Assembly: GCF_003018255.1 (NCBI RefSeq)
Contig: NZ_CP027440.1
From: Escherichia coli
GTDB taxonomy: Bacteria > Pseudomonadota > Gammaproteobacteria > Enterobacterales > Enterobacteriaceae
DNA length: 64,000 nucleotides
Direction: 5' to 3' (one strand)
The notes beneath the pieces are model-generated. The model worked only from the letters and a program-made list of their open reading frames with translations. It was not told the origin of the DNA and did not search any database. A program made the position numbers and the translations under genes. Positions within the stretch are counted from its first letter, which is position 1. Every line of letters starts with the position of its first letter. This document shows, piece after piece, positions 1 to 19,846 of the stretch.

Positions 1-107
1 TGCTCCTGACTTAAGCTGCGCACCGACGGCAATTTCTCCCCGTGACGATACAGCCCTTGCTCAATCCGCTCGGCAAGTAGAGTCGCCAGATGTTGATAAC
101 GCGTCAT
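1..107 (-). CDS. yjiR: GntR/MocR-type transcriptional regulator, N-terminal fragment; the gene continues left of the window
   Basis: The reverse complement starts with ATG at 107 and reads MTRYQHLATLLAERIEQGLYRHGEKLPSVRSLSQE, a GntR winged-helix N-terminus. It is divergent from yjiS as in K-12 (memory). Confidence 0.7.
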   Translation of the reverse strand, partial: MTRYQHLATLLAERIEQGLYRHGEKLPSVRSLSQE

Positions 108-283
108 GCTGTATTCCTTATTTGGACCATACAGAGAGAAAAACCGGTACAGATGAGGCTAAAAAACCGGATGCAGATGCTGTTTTAACCTGTCTGTATG
201 TTAAATAAAACTAATATTTGCATCTGTATTGTGAACTGCCAGAAGACGGATGATGAAGCCTCTGAAAGATGAGGAGGCAGCAG

Positions 284-448
284 ATGGAATTTCACGAAAA
301 CAAAGCTAAAGCACCGTTTATTGGACTTGTGCAACTCTGGCAGGCAGTGAGGCGTTGGCGGCGGCAAATGCAGGCCCGGCGGGTGTTACAGCAGATGAGT
401 GATGAGCGGTTGAGGGATATTGGGTTACGCAGGGAGGATGTGGAGTGA
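284..448 (+). CDS. yjiS: DUF1127 small protein (54 aa)
   Basis: Hand translation gives MEFHENKAKAPFIGLVQLWQAVRRWRRQMQARRVLQQMSDERLRDIGLRREDVE followed by TGA. A GAGGAGG Shine-Dalgarno lies at 270-277. The ORF is below the track cutoff. Confidence 0.8.
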   Translation: MEFHENKAKAPFIGLVQLWQAVRRWRRQMQARRVLQQMSDERLRDIGLRREDVE

Positions 449-544
449 TGGGGCAGTTCGTCGCGGATAAACAGGATTTCTCTATAACCTCCACAAGGAA
501 GTGGTTATTATTGCGAAATCATCGCTTCACGGAAAGACGTCAGA

Positions 545-2638
545 ATGAAAGCTACAGAAGCCCGCCTACTCGATTTTTTAAAACGTTCGCAGCAGTTTGT
601 TATTCCCATTTATCAACGGACTTATTCATGGACAGAACAACAATGTCGGCAACTTTGGGACGACATCATTCGTGCCGGAAAGCGTGACGATATATCAGCG
701 CATTTTATCGGTTCGGTTGTTTATATAGAGCAGGGATTGTATCAGGTTTCTGGTATTTCTCCGTTGCTGGTCATTGATGGTCAACAGCGGCTGACGACCG
801 CAATGTTGCTGATTGAGGCTTTATCACGCCATCTTGGCGAAGACGAAGTTTTTGATGGCTTTTCAGCAATGAAATTGCGTAATTATTATTTACTCAATCC
901 TTATGAGTCCGGCGAGAAAGGATTTAAATTACTGCTGACCGAGACTGATAAAGACAGTTTGCTGGCGTTAATAAAACAAAGACCAATGCCAGAAAACTAT
1001 TCCCATCGAATAATGGAAAACTTTACTTTCTTTGATGAACAAATTGCCAAACTCGGTGATGACTTGATCCCCTTATGTCGTGGGTTAGCAAAGTTATTAA
1101 TTGTCGATGTGGCGCTTAATCGTGGTCAGGATAATCCGCAACTGATTTTTGAAAGTATGAACTCCACCGGTAAGGCGTTAAGTCAGGCCGATCTGGTGCG
1201 CAATTTTATTCTGATGGGCCTCGAACCAGAGCATCAAACCCGGTTGTATGAAGATCACTGGCGTCCAATGGAAGTCGCTTTTGGTCAGCAAGGTTACAGC
1301 GAATATTTTGACAGCTTTATGCGTCATTATCTGACGGTAAAAACGGGGGAGATCCCTCGGACAGATGAAGTCTATGAGGCATTTAAACTCCATGCCCGCA
1401 GCCAGAGTGTTGCTGAAAAAGGCGTAGATCGGCTGGTTGAAGATATTCACATCTACGCGGAGTATTACTGTGCAATGGCATTGGGAAAAGAAAGTGACAA
1501 ATCGCTTGCTACGGCTTTTCAGGATTTGCGCGAGTTAAAGGTCGATGTGGCATATCCTTTCTTACTGGCGCTTTATCATGACTATAAAAATGGCGATTTG
1601 CCTCACGAAGATTTCCTGAGCATAATTCGTTTAATTGAATCTTATGTTTTCCGCCGTGCAGTATGTGCGATTCCGACGAATTCTCTTAACAAGACGTTTG
1701 CCACTTTTTATAAAGTCATTAATAAAGAAAAATATCTGGAAAGTATTCAGGTACATTTTCTGAATCTGCCTTCATATCGTCGTTTCCCCAACGATGATGA
1801 ATTTAAACGGGAATTAAAAGTTCGCGATCTCTATAACTTCCGTAGTCGCAGCTACTGGTTACGACGACTGGAAAACGATAAACGCAGAGAGCGCGTGGAA
1901 GAGTTTACGATTGAGCATATTATGCCGCAGAACGAAAATCTGTCGGCTAAATGGCGCGAAGAGTTGGGAAGCGACTGGCAGCGTGTGCATAAAGAATTGT
2001 TACATACGTTGGGGAATCTCACTTTAACGCGCTATAACTCCCGCTACAGTGACAGACCTTTCGCGGAAAAACGCGATATTGAAGACGGCTTTAAGCATAG
2101 CCCGCTTTATTTGAATATCGGTCTTGGACAGTGCGAAAAATGGGATGAAGCCGCCATTCACGCCCGAGCCGATCGTCTGGCCGATCTTGCGGTTCAGGTT
2201 TGGCAAGCGCCTGCTCTTCCTGAAGAGGTTTTAGCTGTTTATCGGGCGCAGCCGGAGAACAAAACCAGTTACAGCCTGAGTGATTATCCTTTTCTTGCTG
2301 ATGGTTCGCATAGCCGGGTGTTATTTGATCATCTTCGCGATGAAGTTATGCGCCTGGACGCAGGGATCACGCAGGAAGTATTGAAGCTCTATATTGCGTT
2401 TAAAGCTGAAACGAATTTTGTTGATGTTGTGCCGCAAAAAAGCCGACTGCGATTGTCGCTTAATATGCAGTTTCATGAACTGGTCGATCCGAAAGGTATT
2501 GCCAAAGATGTGACAAATGTTGGGCGATGGGGCAATGGCGATGTGGAAATTGGTTTCAGTGACCTCGCACAACTTCCTTACATTATGGGATTAATTCGTC
2601 AGGCATTTGAAAAACAGATGGAGAACGCGTTGGTATAA
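545..2638 (+). CDS. DUF262 (ParB-like NTPase) plus DUF1524 (His-Me finger) protein, a GmrSD-family type IV restriction enzyme candidate with an extra C-terminal domain
   Basis: 697 aa ORF. The N-terminal part has the motifs IPIYQRTYSW and VIDGQQRLTT, typical of DUF262. The central part has EHIMPQN ... GNLTLTRYNSRYSDRPF, typical of the DUF1524 HNH-like nuclease. It sits where K-12 has yjiT/yjiV/mcrBC (memory). Confidence 0.8.
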   Translation: MKATEARLLDFLKRSQQFVIPIYQRTYSWTEQQCRQLWDDIIRAGKRDDISAHFIGSVVYIEQGLYQVSGISPLLVIDGQQRLTTAMLLIEALSRHLGEDEVFDGFSAMKLRNYYLLNPYESGEKGFKLLLTETDKDSLLALIKQRPMPENYSHRIMENFTFFDEQIAKLGDDLIPLCRGLAKLLIVDVALNRGQDNPQLIFESMNSTGKALSQADLVRNFILMGLEPEHQTRLYEDHWRPMEVAFGQQGYSEYFDSFMRHYLTVKTGEIPRTDEVYEAFKLHARSQSVAEKGVDRLVEDIHIYAEYYCAMALGKESDKSLATAFQDLRELKVDVAYPFLLALYHDYKNGDLPHEDFLSIIRLIESYVFRRAVCAIPTNSLNKTFATFYKVINKEKYLESIQVHFLNLPSYRRFPNDDEFKRELKVRDLYNFRSRSYWLRRLENDKRRERVEEFTIEHIMPQNENLSAKWREELGSDWQRVHKELLHTLGNLTLTRYNSRYSDRPFAEKRDIEDGFKHSPLYLNIGLGQCEKWDEAAIHARADRLADLAVQVWQAPALPEEVLAVYRAQPENKTSYSLSDYPFLADGSHSRVLFDHLRDEVMRLDAGITQEVLKLYIAFKAETNFVDVVPQKSRLRLSLNMQFHELVDPKGIAKDVTNVGRWGNGDVEIGFSDLAQLPYIMGLIRQAFEKQMENALV

Positions 2639-2651
2639 CGTGGCGAATAAT

Positions 2652-2677
2652 ACCCGGTAGCACTGGCGCTACCGGGT
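2652..2677. terminator. Bidirectional hairpin between convergent genes
   Basis: ACCCGGTAGC (2652-2661) pairs with GCTACCGGGT (2668-2677) across a 6-nt loop. It lies between the stop codons of the DUF262 gene and symE. Confidence 0.6.
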
Positions 2678-2684
2678 CAATGTA

Positions 2685-3026
2685 TCAGGCGACTTTCTGT
2701 TTACCCGCAATCACCCCAATAAATTCCCGCACCTGCTTTTGTTTACGCGCCGACAGCTTGCACACCTGGCGCAGCGACTGCATTAGCTCGCTCTCTTCGG
2801 GGGCGGGTGGTTGGGCGGTGAGGACAATACAGCCTTCCATCACTTTGACAGCTATCGCCGTGCCGGTGGCAAAACCGGCGGCTTCCAGCCACTGACCTTT
2901 CAGGGTGATGGCGGGAATACGGCTGTAATCCGGGTAGCGACTCGCATAACTCACGGTTAATTGACGGTTATTTGCCGGGGAGACTTCTGCTTCGAACGGT
3001 TGTGCAATAGAATGCGTGTCAGTCAT
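2685..3026 (-). CDS. symE: SOS-induced toxin-like protein SymE (AbrB/SpoVT fold)
   Basis: From ATG at 3026 the translation is [52 protein letters not shown]..., 113 aa, matching K-12 SymE from memory. The longer track ORF (to 3083) is probably an upstream extension. Confidence 0.9.
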
Positions 3027-3097
3027 AACTGCTATTCCTTGAAAATAGTGATTGTGATGAGCGGTGCGGGTGTGTTGGCGCACATCCGCACCGCGCT
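3021..3097 (+). ncRNA. symR: SymR antisense sRNA (type I antitoxin-like), placed by analogy
   Basis: In K-12, SymR is a 77-nt RNA antisense to the symE start and 5' UTR, beginning a few nt inside the CDS (memory). A long hairpin, GCGGTGCGG (3061-3069) with CCGCACCGC (3086-3094), ends at the predicted 3' end. Confidence 0.45.
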
Positions 3098-3101
3098 AAA
3101 T

Positions 3102-3121
3102 ACCTGGATATATCATCAGTA
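3102..3121. promoter_or_regulatory. LexA (SOS) box upstream of symE
   Basis: The sequence acCTGgatatatcatCAGta has CTG-N10-CAG with an AT-rich core and lies about 80 bp upstream of the symE start. symE is known to be LexA-regulated. Confidence 0.65.
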
Positions 3122-3246
3122 AATACAGGGAAAGTCCAGCTAAAAATTAATGAAAATAAGATAGAAGTTAGCGTGAAATATAATTTTTGGTGATGTGAAT
3201 AAAGCGGCTATTGAGCCGCTTTATTGGTTTTATGAGGGCGAGAAAA

Positions 3247-4983
3247 TTAGTTTATCGCCGCGTTAGTCAGTGCGTCTGCAAGGTGCAGTTGGGTTTGTTG
3301 GGCGGTTTTTATACGAGTTTTAAGCTTATCGCATAGTTCATGAAGTAAACCTACTTGTGAAAATATTCTATATTGTTCAGTTAATGGTGGGCATGGGAAT
3401 GAATACAACATTACACTATTTGCTGATAGGTTGGGTTGTGCTGAGCCATTATCAAAGCGGTAAATCTGTGAGCGCCCAAATGGACTGGTTAAATAATTAT
3501 AAATATACCCTCCCATTTCTGTGATAAATGGTCTAATGATCATTAGTGATGAGGCAATAGCTCCTGTTTCATAGGGGGTTACAAAGGCAGTTTTACCAAA
3601 AGTTGCTCCTCGTAGGCAATAAACCAAATCACCTTTTTGAATTTTCCCACTTCTTAATTCATTAAATTTTCCTTCGGTTATAAAATTCATTTCTGTAACC
3701 GTAAGTGTACCATTTTTTTCTATATGTCCAGTATTGATCCAAGGAATACCTTGAGAAACATACTCATTTTTATTGGGATAATTACTTCCACGATCGCCAT
3801 TTATAAACTCTGATGTTAAACCAAATTTACACCACTCCCACCCTTCCGGCAGTTCAAACGGTTTTTCCTCATTGCTAATTGGCGGTAGTGGTTTTTGTTT
3901 TTTTATTTTCCCTTCTTTCACCAGTTGAGCTTTTTCCTGCGCAATTCGTTTGAGCAGTTCAGAGGCGGGTTCGTCATTCGGATCCTGCGGCACAAGTTTA
4001 CCCATTACGGCCAGTTGAAGAATGGTCTGTTTTAACGCATCCACGCTGGCTTCGGTGGTAAATAGGGTGTCGAAATGCTCGCTAATACGCGCCCAGTTTT
4101 CAGCCAGTTCCTCGGCGTTTTGGCTGTCTGTAAGCGTTCCCAACAGGGTTTCAACCAGTTGCTGATGTGCGTCCAGACTGGTCAGGGATTGCTGTTCCAG
4201 TTGGTCGCAGAGAACTGTAAGTTCTCTGATTTTTCTGACAATTTGTTGTTGTTCATTTATAGGCGGTAAAGCGATTATCTGTTGTTCCATTTTTTCTTTA
4301 GTCATATGGAGCATTGCAATACCGTTACCTTGCGATTTTATTTTATCTGTAATGGATAAAAGAAAATCATGTATAAAATATTTGTTTGAGTACTCTTCTG
4401 CAAATAAATTTAATTTCCATATATGGTAGTGATAAATTACTTTTTCTCCTGTCCAAATGAATGGCCCAAAAGATGCGGACCAAGCGTATATTAAATCACC
4501 ATTATTTATATATTTGTTTTCGTCTAATTGGAGGTCAGAGTAATACCACTCATTTGATGTGAATAGATTACCAACACGCAGCAAAGGAGTGCCTGTTTGA
4601 AGCATTTCATGTTTTTTATATGCTCGACCGTTAATAACCTCCATGAGATCTGCAACCCGCACCCACTCCCATCCCTCCGGCAATTCAAACGGCTTCTCTT
4701 CCTCGCTAATTCCTGGCAGTGGTTTTTGCTTTTTAATTTTACCTTGCTTCACCAGCTCTGCTTTTTCCGCAGCAATACGCTTCAGCAGCTCCGACGCCGG
4801 TTCATCATTCGGATCCTGCGGCACCAGTTTACCGCGCACCGCCAGTTCCAGAATCAGCTCACGCAATTTCTTAATGCCATACAAATCAATTTTACCGGAA
4901 CTGCCGCGCCCGGCGGTGGAACGGGTTTGCAACGCCGAGGTCCAGGTTTCCATATGATCAACGATCAGCTTTTCCACACTCAT
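3247..4983 (-). CDS. hsdS: Type I restriction-modification specificity subunit HsdS (578 aa, two TRDs)
   Basis: Two variable AT-rich target-recognition regions alternate with two near-identical conserved blocks (LAV.GKLVPQDPNDEPASELLKRIA.EKA.LVK.GKIKKQKPLP.IS.EEKPFELPEGWEW). The start ATG overlaps the hsdM stop by 1 nt (TGATG at 4981-4985). Confidence 0.92.
   Translation of the reverse strand: MSVEKLIVDHMETWTSALQTRSTAGRGSSGKIDLYGIKKLRELILELAVRGKLVPQDPNDEPASELLKRIAAEKAELVKQGKIKKQKPLPGISEEEKPFELPEGWEWVRVADLMEVINGRAYKKHEMLQTGTPLLRVGNLFTSNEWYYSDLQLDENKYINNGDLIYAWSASFGPFIWTGEKVIYHYHIWKLNLFAEEYSNKYFIHDFLLSITDKIKSQGNGIAMLHMTKEKMEQQIIALPPINEQQQIVRKIRELTVLCDQLEQQSLTSLDAHQQLVETLLGTLTDSQNAEELAENWARISEHFDTLFTTEASVDALKQTILQLAVMGKLVPQDPNDEPASELLKRIAQEKAQLVKEGKIKKQKPLPPISNEEKPFELPEGWEWCKFGLTSEFINGDRGSNYPNKNEYVSQGIPWINTGHIEKNGTLTVTEMNFITEGKFNELRSGKIQKGDLVYCLRGATFGKTAFVTPYETGAIASSLMIIRPFITEMGGYIYNYLTSPFGRSQIYRFDNGSAQPNLSANSVMLYSFPCPPLTEQYRIFSQVGLLHELCDKLKTRIKTAQQTQLHLADALTNAAIN
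3835..4016. repeat. hsdS internal direct repeat, copy 1 (conserved-region DNA)
   Basis: An imperfect direct repeat of about 180 bp matching 4664-4848, for example ...ttcggatcctgcggcac.agtttacc... . It encodes the duplicated HsdS conserved region. Confidence 0.8.
4664..4848. repeat. hsdS internal direct repeat, copy 2
   Basis: Partner of 3835-4016, offset by about 830 bp. Confidence 0.8.
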
Positions 4984-6452
4984 CAGTTAACCTCCTTGCC
5001 AGACAGCGCAGCGCCAAGAATATCGCGCAGTTGATTACGCAGCGTCTGGATCTCCGCCTGCTGTTTTGCATACTGCGCTAACAGTTCGTCCGGGTCATGG
5101 CTGACGGTTTCCGCCTGATGTGGGTTTTTAATATCCAGATTGAAGTTACGCGCAATCACGTCATCAATGCTGACTTTCCACGCTTGCTCATTCTCGATGC
5201 GGCTGGCAAAACCATCGGCCTCGTTACCCCACCAGTCAATCTCCGCCTGAAACTCTTCGAACTTCATCGGCTTGGTTTTACTGTAATTTTTCACGCCCGC
5301 CGGATACGGATGCTCATAGAACCAAATCTCTTTGGTTGGCTGACCTTTGGTAAAAAACAACAGGTTGGTTTTAATGCCGGTATAGGGGTTAAACACACCA
5401 TTCGGTAAACGCACGATGGTATGCAGATTGCACTCTTCGGTAAGCAGCTTTTTGATTTTGGTTTTAACGCCTTCGCCAAATAGCGTGCCATCCGGCAATA
5501 CCACCGCCGCGCGACCGTTTTTCGCCAGTACTTCCACAATCAGTTGCAGAAACAGATCCGCTGTTTCGCGGGTTTGCATCTCTGCCGGAAAGTTCTTCTC
5601 AATACCGTCTTCTTCCGTGCCACCAAACGGCGGGTTGGTAACAATGACATCCAGTTGCTCATCCCAGGAGGAAAGCGGTTTGTTCAGGGTGTTGTCGTGA
5701 CGAATTTGTACAGGCACTTCAATGCCGTGCAGCAGCATATTGGTGGTCGCCAGCAGGTGCGGAAGCTGTTTTTTCTCGACACCGTGGATCTGTTGTTGCA
5801 GCGTCTGATGATCGGCGACGCTCTTCACGTATTTGTTCTTTACATGATCGAACGCGCAGGCAAGAAAACCGCCCGTACCGCAGGCCGGGTCCATAATGGA
5901 TTCGCCGAGTTTCGGATCAACGCGATCCACCATAAAGCGAGTGACGGCGCGTGGCGTATAGAATTCGCCAGCATTGCCCGCAGATTGCAGATCTTTAAGG
6001 ATCTGTTCGTAAATATCACCAAACAGATGGCGTTCGCTGGCGCTGGTAAAGTCAATTTCGTTCAGCTTGTTGATCACCTGGCGCAGTAGCGTACCGTTTT
6101 TCATATAGTTATAGGCATCGCTGAACGCCTGCTTCACCACGTAGCCGCGTGGGTTTTTATCGATAGGCGCAGTGAGGTTTTTCAACGCCGGGAACAGATC
6201 ATCATTAACGAATTCCAGCAGGGAATCACCGGTAATGCCCTGAGCGTTTGCGGCCCAACTGCGCCATAAATAACGCTGTGGGATCGGATATTGATAGTTA
6301 TCCTGCTCCAGTTCCAGCGCCTCTTCCTGGGCATCGAAGATTTTCAAAAACAGCAGCCAGGAGAGCTGACCGAGACGCTGCGCATCGCCATCCACACCGG
6401 CATCTTTGCGCATAATATCTTGTAATGATTTGATTACTGAACTGATAGACAT
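4983..6452 (-). CDS. hsdM: Type I R-M N6-adenine DNA methyltransferase HsdM
   Basis: Contains the AdoMet motif I DPACGTGGFL and the catalytic motif IV NPPFGG. The N-terminus MSISSVIKSLQDIMRKDAGVDGDAQRLGQLSWLLFLK is typical of HsdM. I placed the start at ATG 6452 (alternative 6464), because the track start at 6488 lies inside a terminator hairpin. Confidence 0.92.
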   Translation of the reverse strand: MSISSVIKSLQDIMRKDAGVDGDAQRLGQLSWLLFLKIFDAQEEALELEQDNYQYPIPQRYLWRSWAANAQGITGDSLLEFVNDDLFPALKNLTAPIDKNPRGYVVKQAFSDAYNYMKNGTLLRQVINKLNEIDFTSASERHLFGDIYEQILKDLQSAGNAGEFYTPRAVTRFMVDRVDPKLGESIMDPACGTGGFLACAFDHVKNKYVKSVADHQTLQQQIHGVEKKQLPHLLATTNMLLHGIEVPVQIRHDNTLNKPLSSWDEQLDVIVTNPPFGGTEEDGIEKNFPAEMQTRETADLFLQLIVEVLAKNGRAAVVLPDGTLFGEGVKTKIKKLLTEECNLHTIVRLPNGVFNPYTGIKTNLLFFTKGQPTKEIWFYEHPYPAGVKNYSKTKPMKFEEFQAEIDWWGNEADGFASRIENEQAWKVSIDDVIARNFNLDIKNPHQAETVSHDPDELLAQYAKQQAEIQTLRNQLRDILGAALSGKEVN

Positions 6453-6473
6453 GTTGTATTCCATGAAAAACAA

Positions 6474-6503
6474 GGCCTTCTGCAACATGATGGTTGCAGA
6501 AGG
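6474..6503 (-). terminator. Perfect 12-bp-stem hairpin plus T-tract between hsdR and hsdM
   Basis: GCCTTCTGCAAC (6474-6485) pairs with GTTGCAGAAGGC (6492-6503) across the loop ATGATG. On the minus strand it is followed by TTGTTTTTC. Confidence 0.6.
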
Positions 6504-6518
6504 CGCAAAAGAGAGTTG

Positions 6519-8951
6519 TTAAGCAGAGCGGGGCGGTAATTGGTAGATTTCGTTTTCCAGCTCGCTGAGCGCCTGATTATACCCGTTACGGTCGCCAAAT
6601 CCGGTTTTAATAATCTCCGGTAAGGTGCCCATGCTGTCGAATGGTTTAAGTTTCAGCACCTGAATACTTTCGATCTCCTGTACGCCCGCATCGGCGTATT
6701 TATCCAGCAGATTATCGAGCACGGCTTGCGCTGCTTCAGAGTATTTTGTGAAGTAGTTCCGCTTGCGCACGTTCTCGGCGCGCTCTTTGCGGGTTAACGG
6801 CGGCTGACCATACACTACGTGGCAAAGCATGTCGAACGGGTCGAGATCTTTACCGACTTCTTCTGCCAGTACTTCCCAGATGATCCCCTGTTGTTCCAGC
6901 TCGTGAATGATCGCTTCTTTGCGATCGGCGTCCTGCCACTTGCGGGTAAAGTCATCCAGCGAGGCATATTCTTTGAGCAGTGTTTTGCGGGTGTAATCTT
7001 TAAAAGATTCGGTAACCAGTTTACCGTCGGCATCGTAATACTGAACACGCTGCGCAATAACGCCCACCGCTACACCGTTGACGTGAAACTTGCGGATTTT
7101 CTTCTCGTCTTCTTCCGGAAGTGGGCCGACATCATCGGTATCGGTAACCTGGTATGGTGGCGCAGGCGGTTCATCAACGCCTGTTACCTGTTCGTCGTCA
7201 TGTTCGCTGATTTCTTCGAGTTTCTCTTCAAAATCAGATTCTGGATCGGCGATATCCTCTGATGTGGTATCCATGACTTTTTCGGGAATGCCATCGAAAC
7301 GCTCATCGGCAAACAGTTCGGTGGCTTTTTTAAAGTCGAGGATGGTAAACCAGAGTTTGCCGTAACGTTCGTCGATGCGTGTACCACGACCGATAATTTG
7401 CTTGAATTTGGTCATCGACTGGATGTTCTGGTCCAGTACTACCAGTTTGCAGGTTTTAGCATCCACACCAGTGGTCATCAGCTCTGAAGTGGTCGCGATA
7501 ACCGGGTACGCTTTTTTCGGGTTGATGAAGTTATCCAACTGAGCTTTGCCAATTTCATCATCGCCGGTGATTTTCATGACGTATTTGTCGTTCTTTTTCA
7601 CCTGCTCCGGGTTGAGATTCACCAGGGCGCGGCGCATACGTTCTGCATGATCGATGTCGTTACAGAAGACGATGGTTTTATCCATCGGGTTGGTGCGCTT
7701 GAGGTAGTCGGTAATGGTTCTGGCAACCAGTTCTGTCCGTTCGTCGATTACCATCGTGCGATCGAAATCTTTCTGGTTATAGATACGATCGTCGATCACT
7801 TCGCCGTTTAAGTCAGTTTGCCCTTTGGTTGGGCGCCAGCCTTGCAGATCAACATCAATATCAACACGGACAACTTTATAAGGGGCGAGGAAGCCGTCTT
7901 CGATCCCTTCTTTTAGCGAGTAGACGTAAACCGGATCGCCGAAGTAATCCGTGCTGGAGACTTCATGCGTCTCTTTTGGCGTGGCGGTTAAGCCAATTTG
8001 GGTGGCGGAACTGAAATAATCAAGGATCTCTCGCCAGGCGCTGTCTTCGGATGCGCTGCCGCGATGGCATTCGTCGATCACGATCAGATCGAAGAAATCT
8101 GGTGCGACTTGTTTAAACGCTTTTTGGTCTTCCTCCGGGCCAGTTATAGCCTGATAGAGCGCGAGGTGAATTTCATAAGCGGGATCAATGGTGCGTCCGC
8201 TGACTTTGGTCATTGCCGTACCAAATGGCTGGAAATCATTATTTTTGGTTTGGTCGACCAGAATGTTGCGATCGGCAAGGAACAAAATGCGTTTTTTATT
8301 TTTTGATTTCCACAGGCGCCAGATGATCTGGAATGCGGTATAGGTTTTCCCTGTTCCGGTCGCCATGACCAGCAGAACGCGGTTTTGCCCGTTGGAGACG
8401 GCTTCAATGGTTTTGTTGATTGCCTGAAGCTGGTAATAACGAGGCGATTTGCCGCTGCCATCGTCGTAATAGTCCTGAGTAATCACCGGAAGCTGAGCTT
8501 GTGTGTATCCTTTCCAGAGGCAGAATTTTTGCCAGAGTTCAGCGGGGGAGGGGAAGTCATCCAGCGTTATTTGCTTTTCAAGGCATTCACCTTCAGCTGC
8601 GGTGGCATCGCGGAAGATAAAGCCATCACCGTTGGTGGCAAAAACAAAAGGAACGTCCAGCAGGCGCGCATATTCAATGCCCTGTTGCATCCCTTTGCCA
8701 ATTTCATGTTTGTTGGCTTTTGCTTCAATCACGGCTAAGGGAATGCCTGGTTTGTGATACAGCACGATGTCAGCAGATTTTACCGTTCTGCGTGCCGCAA
8801 CTTTACCACGTACGATGACTTTACCGTTCCGGAGTTTGACCTCCTGTCTGATTTGCGTTGTGTTGTCCCAGCCTGCATTGAGAATGGCTGGCATAACGCA
8901 TTTGGTAATGATGTCTGCTTCCGTCAGGTTACTTAGGTTCAGTTCCGCCAT
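6519..8951 (-). CDS. hsdR: Type I R-M restriction/translocase subunit HsdR (810 aa)
   Basis: The N-terminus has a PD-(D/E)xK-like region (ADIVLY ... VIEAKA). The helicase region has motif I MATGTGKT and motif II VIDECHR. The C-terminal region resembles the EcoEI_R_C domain of type IB enzymes (memory). Confidence 0.92.
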
Positions 8952-9091
8952 GGGGTGTTCTCATCTAAATGCGATGCGTAAATTCTACACAGAAAAATAG
9001 ATGAATTCATCTGTTCAAAGAGTATTATCAGCGTTAAGTCACTGTTTTAAAGGTATTCTTGAGTTTCATCAATAGCTGGATAAGGATTCAT

Positions 9092-10060
9092 ATGGAGAAT
9101 GTTCGGTTCTTGCAAGGAGTGAAACAATATTTTTGTACTAAGGCATTAGATGTCATTCTGCTAATTTATCTACTCCTTGGTTTTATACTTCTCCCTTATA
9201 AATATCTGTGGAAAGATATTATTTTATCTCTGTACTTTGTTGGTATTCTTCTTTATGCATTAGTGGAAGAAAATCGCATTGCAGAATATATGGGGTATTT
9301 TGTTAAGTTCAGTAATAAAAACAGGTTGAATAGTTGTGCTGCCTGGTGTTCACTTATTGCATGGTTTATATTTTTGTTTTTTGTGCTTTCAATTAATATT
9401 TTTCCAGTCAGTGCCTCTGTATATATTTTTAGTGCTTTTTCATTATTTGTTTTTCTGGGGGGTATTTTTATTATATTAGAGTTAGAGTTTAAAGAAAATA
9501 AAAAATTAATGATTATTAGGTCTGTGACTATAGCAGTCATGCCAATTATATATTTATTCACAAGTAGTTATGCTTCCAGTTTATTTTTAAGTTTGAGTAA
9601 TCTAAACATTACGCTAACTCCATGGGTTGAGTATTTCTGGAAAGGGATGGTTTTTATGTTGCTTTTCTTCATGTTAATGCAACTTATTATCTATTTTGCT
9701 TTTTTAACTCTGGGGACTAAATTAAGTGTGTATAGGTTGTTTATACTTGCCGGAGCATTTGTAGTATCTACTTTTTTAGTGGCTTTTGCTTTAAAAAATG
9801 TAGAAGGTATTTCGTACTACGTTTTAAAAAGCACCATAGATTTTGAATGGCGTAATCAGATTAAATGTGGCCAGTTGAATATTTCACGTTCGAATGAAAA
9901 GTATTTTGGGTTTAATACTGATAAATATACTGTATTTTATTCCGGCAGAGATGGTAAATGGGGCTTTGATGAGTTGAAATGTAAGAAAGGTTCTGACAGG
10001 AGAGATGCATATTCTATTGAGAATGTCTCAGAATATAACGTGCCTGGATGGCTGAAATAA
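9092..10060 (+). CDS. Orphan AT-rich polytopic membrane protein (about 7 TM) with a roughly 75-aa soluble C-terminal domain, function unknown
   Basis: ORF with AAGGA 5 nt upstream of ATG 9092; the track start at 9059 is TTG. It has seven hydrophobic stretches, then ...DFEWRNQIKCGQLNISRSNEKYFGFNTDKYTVFYSGRDGKWGFDELKCKKG... . Sampled lines are about 28-30% GC against about 50% in the flanks. It occupies the K-12 mrr position (memory). Confidence 0.7.
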   Translation: MENVRFLQGVKQYFCTKALDVILLIYLLLGFILLPYKYLWKDIILSLYFVGILLYALVEENRIAEYMGYFVKFSNKNRLNSCAAWCSLIAWFIFLFFVLSINIFPVSASVYIFSAFSLFVFLGGIFIILELEFKENKKLMIIRSVTIAVMPIIYLFTSSYASSLFLSLSNLNITLTPWVEYFWKGMVFMLLFFMLMQLIIYFAFLTLGTKLSVYRLFILAGAFVVSTFLVAFALKNVEGISYYVLKSTIDFEWRNQIKCGQLNISRSNEKYFGFNTDKYTVFYSGRDGKWGFDELKCKKGSDRRDAYSIENVSEYNVPGWLK

Positions 10061-10166
10061 GTCATCTTTATAAATTATATAGTAAAGGTTCTGGTCATAA
10101 ACGAGCATAGTTAAACATAAACGGGGCATACTCCACACACTTGATGTGCAGCAAGAAGTTGAACTC

Positions 10167-10292
10167 ATGGCTTTGGTTAATAAATCTGACGAAGATATTG
10201 ATTACAGCGACATTCCTGCGTCTGGTAGCGAAGCATGGGCTGACGCCACACGCGGCAATTTTTTGCCAGATCCAGGTATTCACGCGCAATAA
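10167..10292 (+). pseudogene. Truncated BrnA/DUF4415-like antitoxin fragment (41 codons)
   Basis: Hand translation gives MALVNKSDEDIDYSDIPASGSEAWADATRGNFLPDPGIHAQ followed by a stop. The motif DEDIDYSDIP...W..A.RG.F is as I remember DUF4415. There is no RHH C-terminus and no adjacent BrnT. Confidence 0.35.
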
Positions 10293-10293
10293 A

Positions 10294-10339
10294 ACTTAGC
10301 GGAGGGGAGCACGTCGTTCTGTTTCCCCCTCACTGCTAA
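10294..10339 (-). terminator. Probable yjiA terminator
   Basis: Imperfect inverted repeat CTTAGCGGAGGGG ... CCCCTCACTGCTAAG. On the minus strand it is followed by TTTTATT and lies just downstream of the yjiA stop. Confidence 0.5.
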
Positions 10340-10377
10340 GTGGGGCATTGGGTTGCTTTACACTCAACCTTTTACGA

Positions 10378-11334
10378 TTATTTCCTCAACCCCGCAAACG
10401 CCGCCCGAATCTTATCCTCCGGCAGCTGAATCCCGATAAACACCATTGTGCTATGCGGTGTTTCATCGCCCCACGGGCGGTCCCAGTCGGCGCTGTAGAG
10501 GCGTTGGACGCCCTGGAACAGCAGGCGGCTAGGTTCGCCGTCAATCCACAGCATCCCTTTGTAACGCAGTAGTTTATCCGCCGATTCCAGCAGCAGGTTT
10601 TCCATCACGCGGGAAACTTCGCTGATATCTACCGGGTAATCCAGTTCCACCACAATCGACGAAATATCGTTTTGTTTATCCGCGATAAAGTGGAAACGCG
10701 GTTTGGTGCTGACGACGTTTTCTTCCAGCATAAAACCGTTGGTGTTGAACAACAGGCCCAGGTCGATGTCACCGTGGGTGACGGTGTAGACCGGTGCGCG
10801 GGCGTTGATGCGCGCCAGGCGTTCACGCAGTTTCTCTACTTCGCCTGCGACGTCGGTTTTAGTCAGCAGAATACGGTCAGCGTAGCCCACCTGGGACTGG
10901 GCGATGGTGAACTGGTTCATCTGCTCATCGGCATGTACCGCATCCACCAGCGCAATCACGCCATCCAGCAGGTAACGCTGGCATAAAATCTCATGGGAGA
11001 AAAAGGTCTGAATAATCGGGCCGGGATCGGCCATGCCGGTGCATTCAATGACCAGACGGTCGAACTGAATATTGCCCTTGTCGAGATTGTCCAGCAGGTC
11101 GAGTAGCGCGTCCTCCAGCTCGTTGGAGCGCGAACAGCAGATGCAGCCGTTGGTCAGCGTTTTGATCTGCGTGGCGCGGTCGCCAATCAGTTGATCATCA
11201 ACGGAGACTTCGCCGAATTCGTTTTCAATCACGGCAATTTTGTAGCCGTGCTGTTCATTAAGAATATGGCGCAGCAGGGTGGTTTTGCCCGCGCCTAAAA
11301 AACCGGTGAGTAGGGTAACTGCAATCGGGTTCAT
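10378..11334 (-). CDS. yjiA: CobW/G3E-family metal-binding GTPase
   Basis: MNPIAVTLLTGFLGAGKTTLLRHIL (P-loop) and the CxCC motif GCICCS. 318 aa from ATG 11334, matching K-12 YjiA. Confidence 0.93.
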   Translation of the reverse strand: MNPIAVTLLTGFLGAGKTTLLRHILNEQHGYKIAVIENEFGEVSVDDQLIGDRATQIKTLTNGCICCSRSNELEDALLDLLDNLDKGNIQFDRLVIECTGMADPGPIIQTFFSHEILCQRYLLDGVIALVDAVHADEQMNQFTIAQSQVGYADRILLTKTDVAGEVEKLRERLARINARAPVYTVTHGDIDLGLLFNTNGFMLEENVVSTKPRFHFIADKQNDISSIVVELDYPVDISEVSRVMENLLLESADKLLRYKGMLWIDGEPSRLLFQGVQRLYSADWDRPWGDETPHSTMVFIGIQLPEDKIRAAFAGLRK

Positions 11335-11344
11335 GCTCTCTCCA

Positions 11345-11548
11345 TTAACAACAGCGCATACCGCCTTTACCATCGCCGCCGTAGCGCGCGTTCTGGCGTT
11401 CGCGGAAGAATTCTTCATAGCTCATGTACGGCTTGTCGGGATGGTTGGTCTTCATATGCTCGACGTAGTTGTCGTAGTCTGGAATGCCAATCAACATCTT
11501 CGCCGCCTGGCCGAGATATTTTTTTGCCTGTCCTAAGTTACCAAACAT
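11345..11548 (-). CDS. yjiX: DUF466 small protein, CstA-family partner
   Basis: The 67 aa product [58 protein letters not shown]... matches K-12 YjiX. Confidence 0.92.
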
Positions 11549-11597
11549 AGTTCACTCTGATAAGAACAAAGCCCCGCCGAAGCGGGGCTAAACACGG

Positions 11598-13748
11598 TTA
11601 GTGGTGCGAAGAGATCTTCACGCCGCCTTCCGGGATTGGAACGTACGGAGTTTCTTTGTCAGTACGTTTGTCGCTGTTACGCACCGCAAGCCAGGTTTTG
11701 AAACCGTAGAAGATGATGCTGTACACCACAATCAGGAACAGAATACTCAGACCCGCGTTAGTGTAGTTGTTCACAACGATGTGGTTCATGTTGGCAATCT
11801 GCTGTGCCGTCAGGTCAGTACCGTTAGCAATCTTCTCTTTGTACTGGCTTGCCATGTAGAAGAAGCCTTCCATCTGCGGGTTGGTGCTGAACAGTTTCAG
11901 GCCCAGCGCCCAGGTGGTGCAGATAAGCAGCCATACAGCCGGAACAACAGTTACCCAGATGTATTGGGTGCGCTTCATCTTAATCAGCACAACGGTGCCC
12001 AGTACCAGTGCTACGGCTGCCAGCATCTGGTTGGAAATACCGAACAGCGGCCACAGGCTCTTAACGCCGCCCAGCGGATCGACCACGCCCTGATACAGCA
12101 GGTAGCCCCACAGACCCACACAGCCCGCAGTACCGATGATACCAGCAACCAGAGAGTCGGTTTTTTTCAGGAACGGGATGAAGTTACCCAGCAGGTCTTG
12201 CAGCATAAAGCGGCCAGAACGGGTACCCGCATCCAGCGCGGTCAGGATGAACAGGGCTTCGAACAGAATACCGAAGTGATACCAGAAGCCCATGTCAGCC
12301 ATCGGCAGCACTTTGTGGAACACGTGCGCGATACCTACCGCCAGCGTCGGCGCACCACCTGCACGGTTCAGGACAGAAGGTTCACCAATGTCTTTCGCGG
12401 TTTGCAGGATCTGCTCTGGCGAAATCACGAAGCCCCAGGAGCTGACGGTCGCCGCCGCGTGTGCGGTAACGTCTTTCAACTGCGCCATGATGATCGGCGC
12501 GTTCTCGCCACCCATTTCATGCAGGTTAGGCATGGTGATGCCAAGGCCAGCAGGCGGGGTGTTCATCGCGAAGTAAAGACCCGGTTCGATGATGGACGCA
12601 GCAACCAGCGCCATAATCGCCACGAAGGACTCCATCAGCATTGCGCCGTAGCCAATGAAACGCGCGTCGGTTTCGTTAGCCAGCAGTTTCGGCGTCGTAC
12701 CGGAAGAGATCAGCGCGTGGAAGCCAGATACCGCACCACAGGCGATGGTGATGAACAGGAACGGGAACAGAGCGCCTTTCCACAGCGGGCCAGTACCGTC
12801 AATGTACTGGGTCATCGCAGGCATTTTCAGTTCCGGGTTCAGCACCACGATACCCAGCGCCAGGCCGACGATAACGCCGATTTTCAGGAAGGTTGCCAGA
12901 TAGTCGCGTGGTGCGAGGATCAGCCACACCGGCAGCAGCGCGGAAACAAACGCATAGCCAATCAGCGCGAAGGTAATGGTGGTGTCTTTAAAGGTCAGTG
13001 CCGGACCCCAGTACGGATCGTGAGCAATCACGCCACCGAAGTAGATAGAGGCAACCAGCAGCACGATACCAATGACAGAGACTTCACCCACACGCCCCGG
13101 ACGAATAAAGCGCATGTAGATACCCATAAACAGCGCAATCGGTACGGTTGAGCAAACGGTGAAGACACCCCACGGACTTTCGGCCAGGGCTTTAACCACA
13201 ATCAGCGCCAGGACGGCGAGGATGATGATCATGATTAAGAAACAGCCAAACAGCGCGATAGTCCCCGGTACTGGCCCCATCTCTTCTTTGATCATCTCAC
13301 CAAGAGATGCGCCATTACGGCGAGAGGAGATAAACAGCACCATAAAGTCCTGAACCGCACCGGCCAGCACGACCCCCGCCAGCAGCCACAGCGTGCCAGG
13401 CAGGTAGCCCATCTGCGCGGCGAGAACCGGACCCACCAGCGGACCTGCACCGGCGATAGCGGCGAAGTGGTGACCAAACAACACGTAACGGTTGGTCGGA
13501 ACGTAGTTCAGACCGTCGTTGTTAATAACCGCAGGCGTCGCGCGCGTGGGGTCGAGTTTCATCACCTTCTGGGCGATGTACAGACTGTAGTAGCGATAAG
13601 CCACCAGATACACCGACACAGAGGCGACCACGATCCACAGGGCGCTGACGTGCTCCCCCCGACGTAATGCAACTACCGCGAGGCAGAATGCACCGATGAT
13701 TCCGAGAATCACCCAGGGTATGTGCTTGAATATCTTTTTAGTATCCAT
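11598..13748 (-). CDS. btsT: CstA-family pyruvate/H+ symporter
   Basis: 716 aa polytopic protein starting MDTKKIFKHIPWVILG, matching K-12 YjiY/BtsT. Confidence 0.93.
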   Translation of the reverse strand: MDTKKIFKHIPWVILGIIGAFCLAVVALRRGEHVSALWIVVASVSVYLVAYRYYSLYIAQKVMKLDPTRATPAVINNDGLNYVPTNRYVLFGHHFAAIAGAGPLVGPVLAAQMGYLPGTLWLLAGVVLAGAVQDFMVLFISSRRNGASLGEMIKEEMGPVPGTIALFGCFLIMIIILAVLALIVVKALAESPWGVFTVCSTVPIALFMGIYMRFIRPGRVGEVSVIGIVLLVASIYFGGVIAHDPYWGPALTFKDTTITFALIGYAFVSALLPVWLILAPRDYLATFLKIGVIVGLALGIVVLNPELKMPAMTQYIDGTGPLWKGALFPFLFITIACGAVSGFHALISSGTTPKLLANETDARFIGYGAMLMESFVAIMALVAASIIEPGLYFAMNTPPAGLGITMPNLHEMGGENAPIIMAQLKDVTAHAAATVSSWGFVISPEQILQTAKDIGEPSVLNRAGGAPTLAVGIAHVFHKVLPMADMGFWYHFGILFEALFILTALDAGTRSGRFMLQDLLGNFIPFLKKTDSLVAGIIGTAGCVGLWGYLLYQGVVDPLGGVKSLWPLFGISNQMLAAVALVLGTVVLIKMKRTQYIWVTVVPAVWLLICTTWALGLKLFSTNPQMEGFFYMASQYKEKIANGTDLTAQQIANMNHIVVNNYTNAGLSILFLIVVYSIIFYGFKTWLAVRNSDKRTDKETPYVPIPEGGVKISSHH

Positions 13749-13904
13749 AGTAAAACCTGGCATGTATTGATTAATAGTTGGCCGAAGCCGTTCTAGGTTT
13801 GCGTTGCGTTTGAGGAGGTAAATTGACCGCTATCCTGCAGTGATGTTGCCAGAGTTACGCGCGCGTAAAGTAAGGTAAATAACTGAGTGGTTATTTTAGG
13901 GACG

Positions 13905-13932
13905 TAAGCGGTCAGGAATGGCGGTGAGCGGT
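13905..13932 (-). promoter_or_regulatory. Candidate BtsR (YehT, LytTR) binding direct repeat upstream of btsT
   Basis: The minus strand reads ACCGCTCA-N12-ACCGCTTA, which resembles the ACC[G/T]CT[C/T]A direct repeat reported for the yjiY promoter (memory; I recall a 13-bp spacer). Confidence 0.5.
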
Positions 13933-13960
13933 TGGGCAAGAATTATTCGTCGGGTGGATA

Positions 13961-13976
13961 TGTGATTGAGATCACA
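13961..13976. promoter_or_regulatory. Consensus CRP site upstream of btsT
   Basis: TGTGAttgagaTCACA has perfect half-sites. btsT (yjiY) is reported to be cAMP-CRP dependent. Confidence 0.6.
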
Positions 13977-14011
13977 ATAAAAATGCCCCTTCGATAATTA
14001 ACCGAAGGGGC
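13977..14011 (-). terminator. Rho-independent terminator of the PLP-enzyme gene
   Basis: GCCCCTTCG (13985-13993) pairs with CGAAGGGGC (14003-14011). On the minus strand it is followed by ATTTTT. Confidence 0.75.
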
Positions 14012-14015
14012 GTTC

Positions 14016-15236
14016 TTAGAAGAGAGTGTCTAATTCTGCCAGTACGTTGTAGTCGTCATCAGTCAATAACAACGTTTTCCATTTGTCGAAGGTCAGGCAC
14101 GGATGCGATGTGCCAAACACCAGAATATCCCCCACTTGCACGTCGCTATTAGCTGACAGTTGCAACATGCAGTGCTGATCCATAATACCTGTACTGCGAA
14201 TCGCCTGTGGATCAAATGCCAGTGATTTGCCGTTGCGGTAGTGGGCGACTGGTTGCGGCAGTCCGGCGTCGAAGGCGCAATCACGCTTACCAAAATTTAC
14301 CACCGCACGATCAGCTTCCGGCACCGATTGCACCATGGCGACCAGTTCCAGCGCAGATGTGAGATCGCCTGCCAGATCGCAGGCCACAGGATCACGGGCA
14401 AGCAACTGTTGTTGTGCCGCGTCGTAGATCCCGGTGTCGTGAGTGATGTAGCAGCCAGGGCGAATAACAATGCGGCAGTTATCAGGCTTTTCTGCCGCCA
14501 GCCAGATATTGCACACCACGTCATACCAGACCGTGCCTGCTCCGGTGAGAATAAACTCGCCATCAACCAGACTTGCCATATCACAGGCCAGTTGTGCGGC
14601 ATCCCGCAGCAGAGCTTCTACCTGCGGTTGTGGATCGTCACCGTGTAAAACGCCTTCATATAACTCAAGCCCCCGCAGGCGTAACCCCGGTAATTGGGCT
14701 GCCTGTTTAGCCAGTGTCAGTGCGGCATCCCTTGAGCGGCAACCACAGCGCCCGCCGGGGACACCCAACTCAATCATCACGTTCAGTGTCTGTTGCTGAC
14801 TGGCAAAAAAGGCAGACAAAGCGCGGGCGTTCTCAATGCTGTCGATACAGCAGATAAAATCGACCGTCGGGTAATGTCGTTGCAACTGGGCAATCAACTG
14901 CATATTCGCCTTGCCGACCAGCTGGTTAACCATCAGCACTCGCTGAATACCGCTCGCCATTGCCGCACCAGCCTGCCATGCGCTACCGACACCTATTGCC
15001 CAGGCGCCTGCCGCCTGCTGCGCCTGAAAAATCCACGGCGTCATGGTGGTTTTACCGTGCGGTGCCAGCGAAACGCCGCGCGCGTCAGCATAACGCTGCA
15101 TCCACGTAATGTTGTTCTCCAGGGCCTGCTTTTTAATGATCGCGGCAGGTAAACAGACATCTTCGGCAAGGAGATTTGCGGGCATTTGCATCAGGGCAGA
15201 TTTATGGGGAACCAGAGGTTCTGAGTGGTATTTCAT
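14016..15236 (-). CDS. PLP-dependent D-serine/D-threonine dehydratase or aldolase-like enzyme (alanine-racemase-N fold, DSD1 family)
   Basis: 406 aa. It has a PHGKT lysine motif (SLAPHGKTTM) and a C-terminal HPC motif (GTSHPCLTFDKW), as in the D-Ser dehydratase-like family. I remember it as absent from K-12 at this locus. Confidence 0.75.
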   Translation of the reverse strand: MKYHSEPLVPHKSALMQMPANLLAEDVCLPAAIIKKQALENNITWMQRYADARGVSLAPHGKTTMTPWIFQAQQAAGAWAIGVGSAWQAGAAMASGIQRVLMVNQLVGKANMQLIAQLQRHYPTVDFICCIDSIENARALSAFFASQQQTLNVMIELGVPGGRCGCRSRDAALTLAKQAAQLPGLRLRGLELYEGVLHGDDPQPQVEALLRDAAQLACDMASLVDGEFILTGAGTVWYDVVCNIWLAAEKPDNCRIVIRPGCYITHDTGIYDAAQQQLLARDPVACDLAGDLTSALELVAMVQSVPEADRAVVNFGKRDCAFDAGLPQPVAHYRNGKSLAFDPQAIRSTGIMDQHCMLQLSANSDVQVGDILVFGTSHPCLTFDKWKTLLLTDDDYNVLAELDTLF

Positions 15237-15436
15237 AACATTTACCTTTTAAGTTTTTCACCGTATCGGATGTGAGTATCACTTGTAACTAAATGAAATA
15301 TAAATATTTAGTTTATTTATCTTATTATTTATGAATAAAAGTATCATAAAATCATCTGGGTTTTGCGTAGTTTTCCACTGTTTTTCGTCCTTGTAAATGG
15401 TTAACTTGTCACCATTGCAGAAATGGAGTGACGAAC

Positions 15437-16879: not shown

Positions 16880-16888
16880 GGAGTGAAT

Positions 16889-17278
16889 ATGAGCATTAAA
16901 CGTTACGGTACGGAAGGTGGAACAGGCACTGGCGGGCAGCATTTGCCTTTTGCCAGGGCGGTTGAGGCGGGCGGCTGGCTGTACGTCTCCGGGCAAACAC
17001 CCATGAAAAACGGTGAAGTGGTAGAAGGCGGAATCGTTGAACAGTCACGACTGGCGATCCAAAACTGTGTCGACATCATGACTGAAGCCGGTTATAGCCT
17101 GGCGGATGTGGTTCACGTGAAAGTGATCCTGACCGACGCCCGCTATTTCCAGTCATTTAATAAAGTATTCAGAGAATTTTTTGGCGAGAATCCGCCTGCA
17201 CGTATTTGTTGTGTGGCTGATCTGGTTGTCGATTGTAAAGTCGAAGTCGATGTGACCTGTTATAACGCGACCCGCTAA
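16889..17278 (+). CDS. RidA/YjgF-family enamine/imine deaminase
   Basis: 129 aa. AAGGAG lies 5 nt upstream of ATG 16889. The YjgF-like core is GWLYVSGQTP ... ARICCVADLVVDCKVEVDV. Confidence 0.8.
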   Translation: MSIKRYGTEGGTGTGGQHLPFARAVEAGGWLYVSGQTPMKNGEVVEGGIVEQSRLAIQNCVDIMTEAGYSLADVVHVKVILTDARYFQSFNKVFREFFGENPPARICCVADLVVDCKVEVDVTCYNATR

Positions 17279-17380
17279 TAAATTTAAGAATTAAAAAAAC
17301 AGACCGCAATTGAGTGCTGAATACATTCAGCACTCCGGGAACTCTTACATTAATTTCTCTCTACTGGCAGGATGTGAATT

Positions 17381-18850: not shown

Positions 18851-18859
18851 CCAACAATG

Positions 18860-19765: not shown

Positions 19766-19846
19766 AAACTGCCGCTATAGAGTGTGACCCTCACAAAAAA
19801 CGCAAGTTTGCTGCAACAAAAGCAGTGCCGACGCTTTTCCACAGCA

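Follow-up and report, generated by a model that had tools for sequence, protein, structure and literature searches.

What is the nature of a chromosomal segment in which a modification-dependent nuclease, a toxin–antitoxin pair, a type I restriction-modification system and an uncharacterised membrane protein stand side by side between conserved genes, and how does such a set of genes change from one strain to the next? The question is raised by positions 449-10377 of a 64,000-nucleotide stretch of Escherichia coli DNA (assembly GCF_003018255.1, contig NZ_CP027440.1), referred to below as the window. The interval is exact, 449 being the first base past the yjiS stop codon and 10377 the last base ahead of the yjiA stop. 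The locus is very probably the immigration control region (ICR) of E. coli, also listed as defence hotspot #36, with a common and already catalogued gene set in slots that are exchanged by homologous recombination. It is better described as three independently replaceable slots between conserved framework sequences than as one cassette, the gene order being yjiS, slot 1 with a GmrSD-family enzyme, the symE/SymR anchor, slot 2 with hsdS, hsdM and hsdR, slot 3 with a seven-helix membrane protein (termed X7TM here) and a BrnA remnant (brnA′), and yjiA.

The ICR has been defined as the region between yjiS and yjiA, which is highly divergent and behaves as a replaceable cassette (PMC3874165; PMC2481252); its description is credited, in these two citing papers, to Sibley and Raleigh 2004. 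According to section 60 of a 2025 review (PMC12707154), it holds type IA, IB and ID systems, Mrr, McrBC and GmrSD together with brnAT, symER and rpn toxin–antitoxin systems, and it has no mobilising activity at an anchor, unlike the leuX hotspot; Hochhauser et al. 2023 list it as hotspot #36 (PMC10121019). In agreement with that, the variable segment of the window is bounded by yjiS and yjiA at the serB-linked site, with serB in the same window context, and other strains carry alternative, non-homologous gene sets at the same place. The window starts inside yjiR, and the neighbour genes annotated in related E. coli genomes agree with the ICR framework. On the left lies yjiS (269/284-448, plus strand; Pfam DUF1127, 2.8e-12; annotated at 284-448 in the nearest genome), and on the right yjiA (10378-11334, minus strand), which encodes a CobW-family GTPase (NF008578, 679.7 bits). 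A preliminary description of the window had called these flanks conserved, and they are matched in 5,394 of 5,426 complete E. coli genomes, the set to which all genome counts given here refer (those of single slot contents at 80% or more of query coverage). At least 80% of positions 1-12000 is matched in 801 genomes, the nearest being that of strain 2014C-3338 (99.5% over the first 12 kb). The inventory of the earlier description was likewise accurate, all of the items being recovered at the right coordinates by Pfam, NCBIfam, Rfam, PADLOC and BLAST.

By blastn, homology to K-12 is confined to positions 1-453, to 2689-3147 (symE/SymR, 93.5% nucleotide identity) and to 10378 onward; it ends at 453 and resumes exactly at the yjiA stop codon at 10378, with 97.8% identity. 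Because it returns at the internal symE/SymR anchor, the island is read as three slots and not as one cassette. The DNA of the cassettes is deviant in composition (30-40% G+C vs about 50%). The contents of each slot alternate among genomes: the GmrSD-like cassette of slot 1 was found in 1,360 and mcrBC in 582, while type IB hsdR occurs in 945, type IA hsdR in 935 and a third hsdR family in 863, that is, at least three hsd families, each in ~16-17% of complete genomes. In slot 3, X7TM plus brnA′ (409 genomes) alternates with mrr in K-12 (944), with a 550-aa DUF262/HNH protein between type IB hsdR and yjiA in uropathogenic E. coli (UPEC) 536 and O157:H7 (572), and with a restriction endonuclease plus brnTA in strain WP3-S18-ESBL-08; intact brnTA adjoining yjiA is present in 1,780 genomes. 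Slots 1 and 2 vary independently, the HsdS recognition domains diverge beside conserved regions of 95-100% identity, and the combinations of slots differ from strain to strain. The cassette swapping proposed earlier is thus real by the genome counts, the single cassette of that proposal being replaced by three separately exchangeable slots.

The manner of exchange is indicated by the comparison with strain 2014C-3338, from which the window differs at no position in 1-6724, at 58 positions in 6725-10963, at none in 10964-13103, at 13 in 13104-13903 and at none beyond. The segment 6725-10963 stands out as a recombinant patch of 58 single-nucleotide polymorphisms (SNPs), with 6,724 and 2,140 identical bases on either side and with its ends inside hsdR and yjiA. 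The earlier description had found no integrase, transposase or tRNA gene at either edge of the interval, and this holds for the whole of it: there is no tRNA within 34 kb, and since all intergenic gaps (96, 46, 149, 30, 140, 40 and 85 bp) are at most 149 bp, they leave no room for an unseen gene. Remnants of an integrase, of BrnT or of Mrr were not found in the island by tblastn, and scans for direct and inverted repeats at the borders gave only short pairs at chance level, with no flanking direct repeats, so that the interval shows none of the marks looked for in an integrative island (a gene for a tyrosine or serine recombinase or for a transposase, a tRNA as target site, and direct repeats on the two flanks). 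An imperfect inverted repeat of 20 nt (454-473 / 10673-10692, 85% complementary), with one arm beginning exactly at the left breakpoint and the other inside yjiA, was considered as a border signal and rejected; with 19 comparable pairs in 11.5 kb, it is judged to be due to chance. Promoter and terminator scans gave nothing above shuffled expectation.

Discrete SNP patches, breakpoints at gene ends and the lack of a recombinase support homologous recombination as the likely route of turnover, with the framework and the conserved hsd genes as its substrates. In such a scheme, incoming DNA would arrive by conjugation or transduction and undergo ordinary homologous recombination, with crossovers placed in the framework (yjiPRS, symE/symR, yjiAXY), in conserved hsdR/hsdM or in those stretches of hsdS that are conserved. 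The exchange could in this way involve entire slots or just one recognition domain, with no need for an island-encoded recombinase.

The gene of slot 1 (545-2638, plus strand) encodes a 697-aa, single-chain type IV (modification-dependent) restriction enzyme of the GmrSD family, as identified by Pfam domains, PADLOC and motifs. GmrSD_N (6e-35) and GmrSD_C (9e-27) are followed by a C-terminal DUF5655 (1e-13), PADLOC returns Orf5 (3.8e-223), HEC-06 and mREase_IV, and the motifs DGQQR (residue 78) and EHIMP (residue 457) are intact. The protein thus has the fusion that marks the family, that of a ParB-like NTPase (DUF262, with DGQQR) to a His-Me finger (DUF1524, with (D/E/H)HxxP), and the DUF262 gene does belong to a restriction family, as the preliminary description had held. 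Its best match to a solved structure covers the N-terminal domain only (6e-13). From family membership and the intact motifs, the enzyme would be expected to cut DNA carrying phage-type base modifications. In several genomes, the RefSeq/PGAP annotation splits the gene into a DUF262 pseudogene and a separate 387-aa GmrSD-domain protein. A pseudogene can be ruled out, the frame being open in every copy examined: all 697 codons are uninterrupted both in the window and in three reference loci (L001, 3545-5638; L002, 2701-4794; L003, 8606-10699). Since the frame is open from start to stop in all of them, the split is an artefact of annotation, one which could make surveys of defence systems undercount this enzyme.

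The anchor between slots 1 and 2 consists of symE (2685-3026, minus strand; PF08845, 3.3e-21; NF010128, 224.6 bits with a cutoff of 132), the toxin gene of a type I toxin–antitoxin pair with 92.9% amino-acid identity to K-12 SymE, and of the antisense RNA antitoxin SymR (3021-3097, plus strand), which is matched over its full length by Rfam RF01809 (91.7 bits, gathering score 61). SymR overlaps the symE start and lies in cis-antisense over its 5′ end, in a geometry identical to that of K-12, which identifies the two as a SymE/SymR type I pair. Judging from the family, the pair would be SOS-linked. A LexA-box-like site lies upstream of symE at 3104-3119 (CTGGATATATCATCAG vs CTGTATATATCATCAG in K-12, one base different).

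Slot 2 is occupied by three genes on the minus strand: hsdS (3247-4983; 578 aa, type IB layout; Methylase_S, PADLOC Specificity_I 2.3e-267), hsdM (4983-6452; an N6-adenine DNA methyltransferase subunit with N6_Mtase, 1.1e-93, and HsdM_N), for which the annotated start gives 489 aa while the ORF could reach 6488, and hsdR (6519-8951; 810 aa, a translocase-nuclease subunit of the EcoAI family with ResIII, EcoEI_R_C and HSDR_N). By sequence, the genes are assigned to type IB (the EcoAI family) and not to type IA, as had been suggested before from the HsdR tail and the HsdM N-terminus. The EcoEI_R_C tail (PF08463, 6e-37, residues 648-803) is present, HsdR matches the NCBIfam equivalog NF046051 ‘EcoAI/FtnUII family’ with 1191.8 bits (cutoff 550), and HsdR and HsdM are only 26.6% and 28.6% identical to their EcoKI counterparts, a check for type IA that came out negative; identity of HsdR and HsdM between type I families is about 17-33% (PMC2481252). 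With their UPEC 536 counterparts, by comparison, the two proteins share 99.8% and 99.6% identity, and the UPEC 536 system has been reported as 99% identical to EcoAO83I, whose IB type was established by complementation and with antibodies (PMC2481252). The Walker A motif GTGKT, DECH and QxxGRxxR in HsdR as well as NPPF and DPACGTG in HsdM are intact. Both the restriction-modification system and the GmrSD-like enzyme look functional, judging from their full-length reading frames with all catalytic motifs in place.

A profile of regional identity to four other IB HsdS proteins divides HsdS into conserved regions (1-105, 256-380 and 554-578), which are 80-100% identical to other E. coli IB HsdS, indels excepted, and two variable target-recognition domains (~106-255 and ~381-553). 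The resulting order D2-S1-D1-S2, with a long conserved N-terminal region, a recognition domain, a second conserved region and a second recognition domain, is that described for type IB HsdS (PMC3874165). Both recognition domains are unlike those of UPEC 536 and O157:H7, with 0-35% identity across the variable regions; since neither variable block matches, the target must differ from that of UPEC 536 (GGA N8 ATGC). A large protein search with a cluster look-up for recognition-sequence labels gave generic names, none of them EcoAI, EcoEI or CfrAI. The allele, with both recognition domains, is present in 7 complete genomes and in 569 contigs, and its practical value is that it flags a distinct type IB specificity. 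Strains 2014C-3338 (NZ_CP027452), SCU-171 and JNE120442 are examples of its carriers. By analogy with the family and given the motifs, an HsdM2S complex would methylate adenines of a bipartite sequence that its two recognition domains specify, and HsdR would translocate and cut DNA without the HsdM2S mark. A direct repeat of 192 nt with 80% identity lies inside hsdS (3832-4023 and 4663-4854) and probably reflects the pair of conserved regions that a type IB HsdS has, in which case it would be a substrate for recognition-domain shuffling.

The first gene of slot 3 (9092-10060, plus strand; 30% G+C) encodes X7TM, an uncharacterised protein of 322 aa. Hydropathy and the positive-inside rule (K+R 12 vs 2 in alternate loops) predict seven helices with the N-terminus inside, and an 85-aa, beta-rich C-terminal domain is predicted to be periplasmic. 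In the alignment, this domain is the most conserved part (EW..CG.L.I...E.YFGFNTDKYTV...KWGF.E..C, with two invariant cysteines). X7TM has no match in Pfam, NCBIfam or PADLOC, and hence none to a known anti-phage family there, only a marginal membrane-protein match in PHROGs (E=0.0076); two AF2 models of moderate confidence (pLDDT 68 and 72) gave no fold match to known structures. The membrane ORF noted earlier is thus present, although the word ‘orphan’ does not hold, since it belongs to a small family of 41 representatives among 1.84 billion proteins, for which a profile search returned the family itself alone, and which is found in 10 GTDB species, nearly all of them Enterobacterales; one cluster of the 322-aa protein has 1,464 member sequences. 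X7TM is a real gene under purifying but relaxed selection, with a dN/dS of 0.29-0.37 vs 0.05-0.17 in neighbour genes. Its E. coli and Klebsiella versions share 42% identity, compared with 92%, 97% and 84% for the neighbouring HsdR, HsdM and GmrSD, and the allele of the window is at most 97.9% identical to that of any complete E. coli genome.

X7TM occurs in two settings. One is found in E. coli, E. ruysiae, Salmonella and Klebsiella, where the gene without exception stands at the island edge in divergent orientation to type IB hsdR, adjoining yjiA in E. coli and Salmonella and yjiR in Klebsiella. The other is that of Pectobacterium, Serratia, Cedecea and Enterobacteriaceae bacterium RIT693, in which only 47-50 bp separate the X7TM start from the end of a preceding P4-type tyrosine integrase, 91-99% identical across these genera; in Lonsdalea and Pectobacterium versatile, partial matches to X7TM lie downstream of the same integrase at a distance of a few hundred bp. 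The lptG-side hotspot is the site of at least three of these loci, whose elements bring toxin–antitoxin and defence-type genes as well; the whole has the look of a satellite- or island-type element common to several genera. The cargo behind integrase and X7TM is variable, with HigB/HigA-like pairs, an OLD-like nuclease, a TIR-domain protein and DUF6119 among its members. Kosakonia has a truncated integrase that overlaps X7TM, and behind them come an Mrr-like gene, symE and type IA hsdSMR.

The preliminary description had taken every uncharacterised ORF of the interval as a defence candidate by association, an argument that here appears to reach a single one, X7TM. It is not part of the restriction enzyme, since 572 type IB loci have no X7TM, and if defensive, it must act at the envelope, because it is polytopic and has no nuclease or DNA-binding signature. 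The best guess, a tentative one, would be an envelope-level phage-exclusion or abortive-infection protein. With the same reserve, it may be imagined as the founder of an unrecognised single-gene family of envelope defence, which by means of a disulfide-bonded periplasmic beta domain would block the entry of phage DNA or trigger abortive infection. No more confidently, X7TM could be pictured as an accessory gene that accompanies type IB hsd cassettes in Escherichia, Salmonella and Klebsiella, and that in Pectobacterium, Serratia and Cedecea takes the first cargo position behind a P4-type integrase. If X7TM is a defence gene, it would amount to a new single-gene system, carried by ~7-8% of the complete genomes of E. 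coli, among them enterohaemorrhagic lineages of O26 and O111. In any case, it is a small, fast-evolving membrane family in a slot otherwise filled by type IV restriction enzymes.

Between X7TM and yjiA lies brnA′ (10101/10146-10292, plus strand), an ORF of 48-63 codons that corresponds to the N-terminal ~54 codons of a BrnA antitoxin. Its designation as a BrnA-like remnant proved right: BLASTP gives 53% identity over 53 aa to the N-terminal half of the Klebsiella ICR BrnA (3e-19), and blastn gives 75% nucleotide identity to codons 2-54 of E. coli brnA. The start codon is ACG, the similarity stops at residue ~54 of 100, and the C-terminal DNA-binding half is missing. No match to Pfam was obtained at E≤10, whereas a full-length BrnA would be expected to match BrnA_antitoxin, and a brnT toxin gene was not found in the island by tblastn, only 40 bp being available upstream of brnA′. 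It is a scar and not a toxin–antitoxin module.

Of the other ways in which the locus might be understood, that of an ancestral, fixed state of the species, with K-12 as the exception, has the conserved flanks in its favour and nothing more, and its chances are close to nil. The full arrangement is found in only 7.5% of complete genomes (409 of the 5,426 share the right-hand module), at least three hsd families alternate, each in ~16-17%, and the G+C content of the cassettes lies well away from about 50%. Because alternative cassettes are each present in hundreds of complete genomes, the arrangement is neither ancestral nor invariant, and the counts for the GmrSD-like gene, the hsdR families, mcrBC, mrr and X7TM rule such a state out. 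The gene content given earlier for K-12 (yjiT, yjiV, mcrCB, symE, type IA hsdSMR and mrr) agrees with the K-12 annotation, whereas calling the present island ‘re-tooled’ wrongly takes K-12 as the starting state. A different origin is suggested by the integrase-linked X7TM genes, namely that an integrase-bearing island first delivered the hsd(IB)-X7TM block and that X7TM is its surviving integrase-proximal gene, a mobility fossil. The close spacing behind the P4-type integrase in Pectobacterium, Serratia, Cedecea and RIT693, the partial matches near the same integrase in Lonsdalea and P. versatile, the lptG-side position of three loci, the truncated integrase of Kosakonia ahead of Mrr-like, symE and type IA hsdSMR genes and the constant place of X7TM at the island edge would all fit. 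Such a delivery is nevertheless unlikely, as the window holds no detected integrase remnant, att-like repeat or tRNA, the 572 type IB loci do wholly without X7TM, and the ICR-type and integrase-linked proteins are only 30-33% identical, so that any link between them must be old. A relic of the delivering element would be compatible with a defence role of X7TM.

A third possibility concerns the mechanism of turnover, which may be aided or targeted by a recombination function at the border, the candidate being the Rpn-family PD-(D/E)xK nuclease RpnD/YjiP. The gene, annotated as a ‘recombination-promoting nuclease/putative transposase’, stands directly left of yjiR in related E. coli genomes, ~1.5 kb left of the equivalent of the window start in the three that are annotated that far. 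On induction, YjiP increased recombination independent of RecA about five-fold, and replacements of the ICR alone were enriched ~100-fold over what was expected (PMC4498929); the homology breakpoints fall exactly at gene ends, and hotspot #36 has been described by Hochhauser et al. as flanked by a transposable element (PMC10121019). However, the same study found no evidence that YjiP targets the ICR (PMC4498929), rpnD is a pseudogene in K-12 and frameshifted in the nearest genome, the SNP patch ends in coding sequence and not at the island borders, and border repeats were not found, all of which makes a part for RpnD quite improbable. Homologous recombination between strains that share the framework is the reading retained here, although several points weigh against it as a full account. 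It covers the exchange of alleles, in which the earlier proposal of recombination through the flanks fits the data, but not the first entry of the cassettes. The brnA scar, which is truncated on both sides and shares only 75% identity with the resident allele, implies one illegitimate junction or more. In Klebsiella, the GmrSD-symE-hsdSMR-X7TM block lies on the opposite side of yjiR-yjiS from that in E. coli; symE-hsdSMR(IB)-X7TM is carried by Klebsiella loci L005, L006, L007, L008 and L021, with the GmrSD-like gene ahead in L021 and intact brnTA at the far end of L005-L007. Because of the scar and the Klebsiella placement, homologous recombination cannot be the whole story. As to the defence role of X7TM, position would be the entire argument for it.

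To the right of the ICR, the window contains a second replaceable segment, a 5.9-kb block between btsT and tsr (13932-19844) with genes for an amino-acid deaminase, an N-acyl-D-amino-acid deacylase, RidA, a sodium:solute symporter and a MurR/RpiR regulator. The btsT-tsr site is empty in K-12 and holds the hpa operon in other strains.

Taken as a whole, the observation is a correct rediscovery, everything on the layout and turnover of the ICR having been published before; as stated, it adds nothing to what is known of the ICR, a textbook defence island with recombinational turnover between conserved flanks.

How the single modules relate to known systems can be stated slot by slot. The GmrSD-like enzyme has its closest parallels in the ICR-type homologues APECO1_2080, ECP_4674 and UTI89_C5048 (PMC4437046, Fig. 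8), which take the same mcrBC-replacing place by symE. An ICR-type homologue is ~24% identical to Eco94GmrSD (PMC4437046), and no characterisation of one is reported in PMC4437046 or PMC12373910; GmrSD homologues are known companions of type I systems (PMC4619093). With the wider family (Eco94GmrSD, BrxU, SspE), the enzyme has in common the DUF262 NTPase with DGQQR and the DUF1524 His-Me nuclease with EHxxP, while it is very distant from the characterised enzymes and carries the additional C-terminal DUF5655. The hsd system shares with EcoAI, EcoEI and EcoAO83I/Eco377I (GGA N8 ATGC) the HsdR/HsdM similarity, the EcoEI_R_C tail and the type IB layout of HsdS; the system of UPEC 536 is a reported isoschizomer of EcoAO83I, and the window differs from UPEC 536 and O157:H7 in both HsdS recognition domains. 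In slot 3, Mrr and the 550-aa DUF262/HNH protein occupy the same place between hsdR and yjiA as X7TM and have the same divergent orientation to hsdR, but X7TM differs from them in being a polytopic membrane protein that lacks any nuclease or DNA-binding signature. With the brnTA module of the ICR, brnA′ shares the first ~54 BrnA codons and the place by yjiA; brnT, the C-terminal half, the ATG start and a Pfam match set the module apart from it.

Compared with the ICR of Sibley and Raleigh 2004 (hotspot #36) as a whole, the window presents no difference in kind. It is distinguished by its copy of 6725-10963, which is 1.4% off every complete genome searched, and by an hsdS allele that is rare among complete genomes (7/5,426). 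The site and the framework of yjiR, yjiS, yjiA, yjiX and btsT are the same, an integrase is missing in both, and both hold the same classes of content, namely type I restriction-modification, type IV enzymes and symE/SymR.

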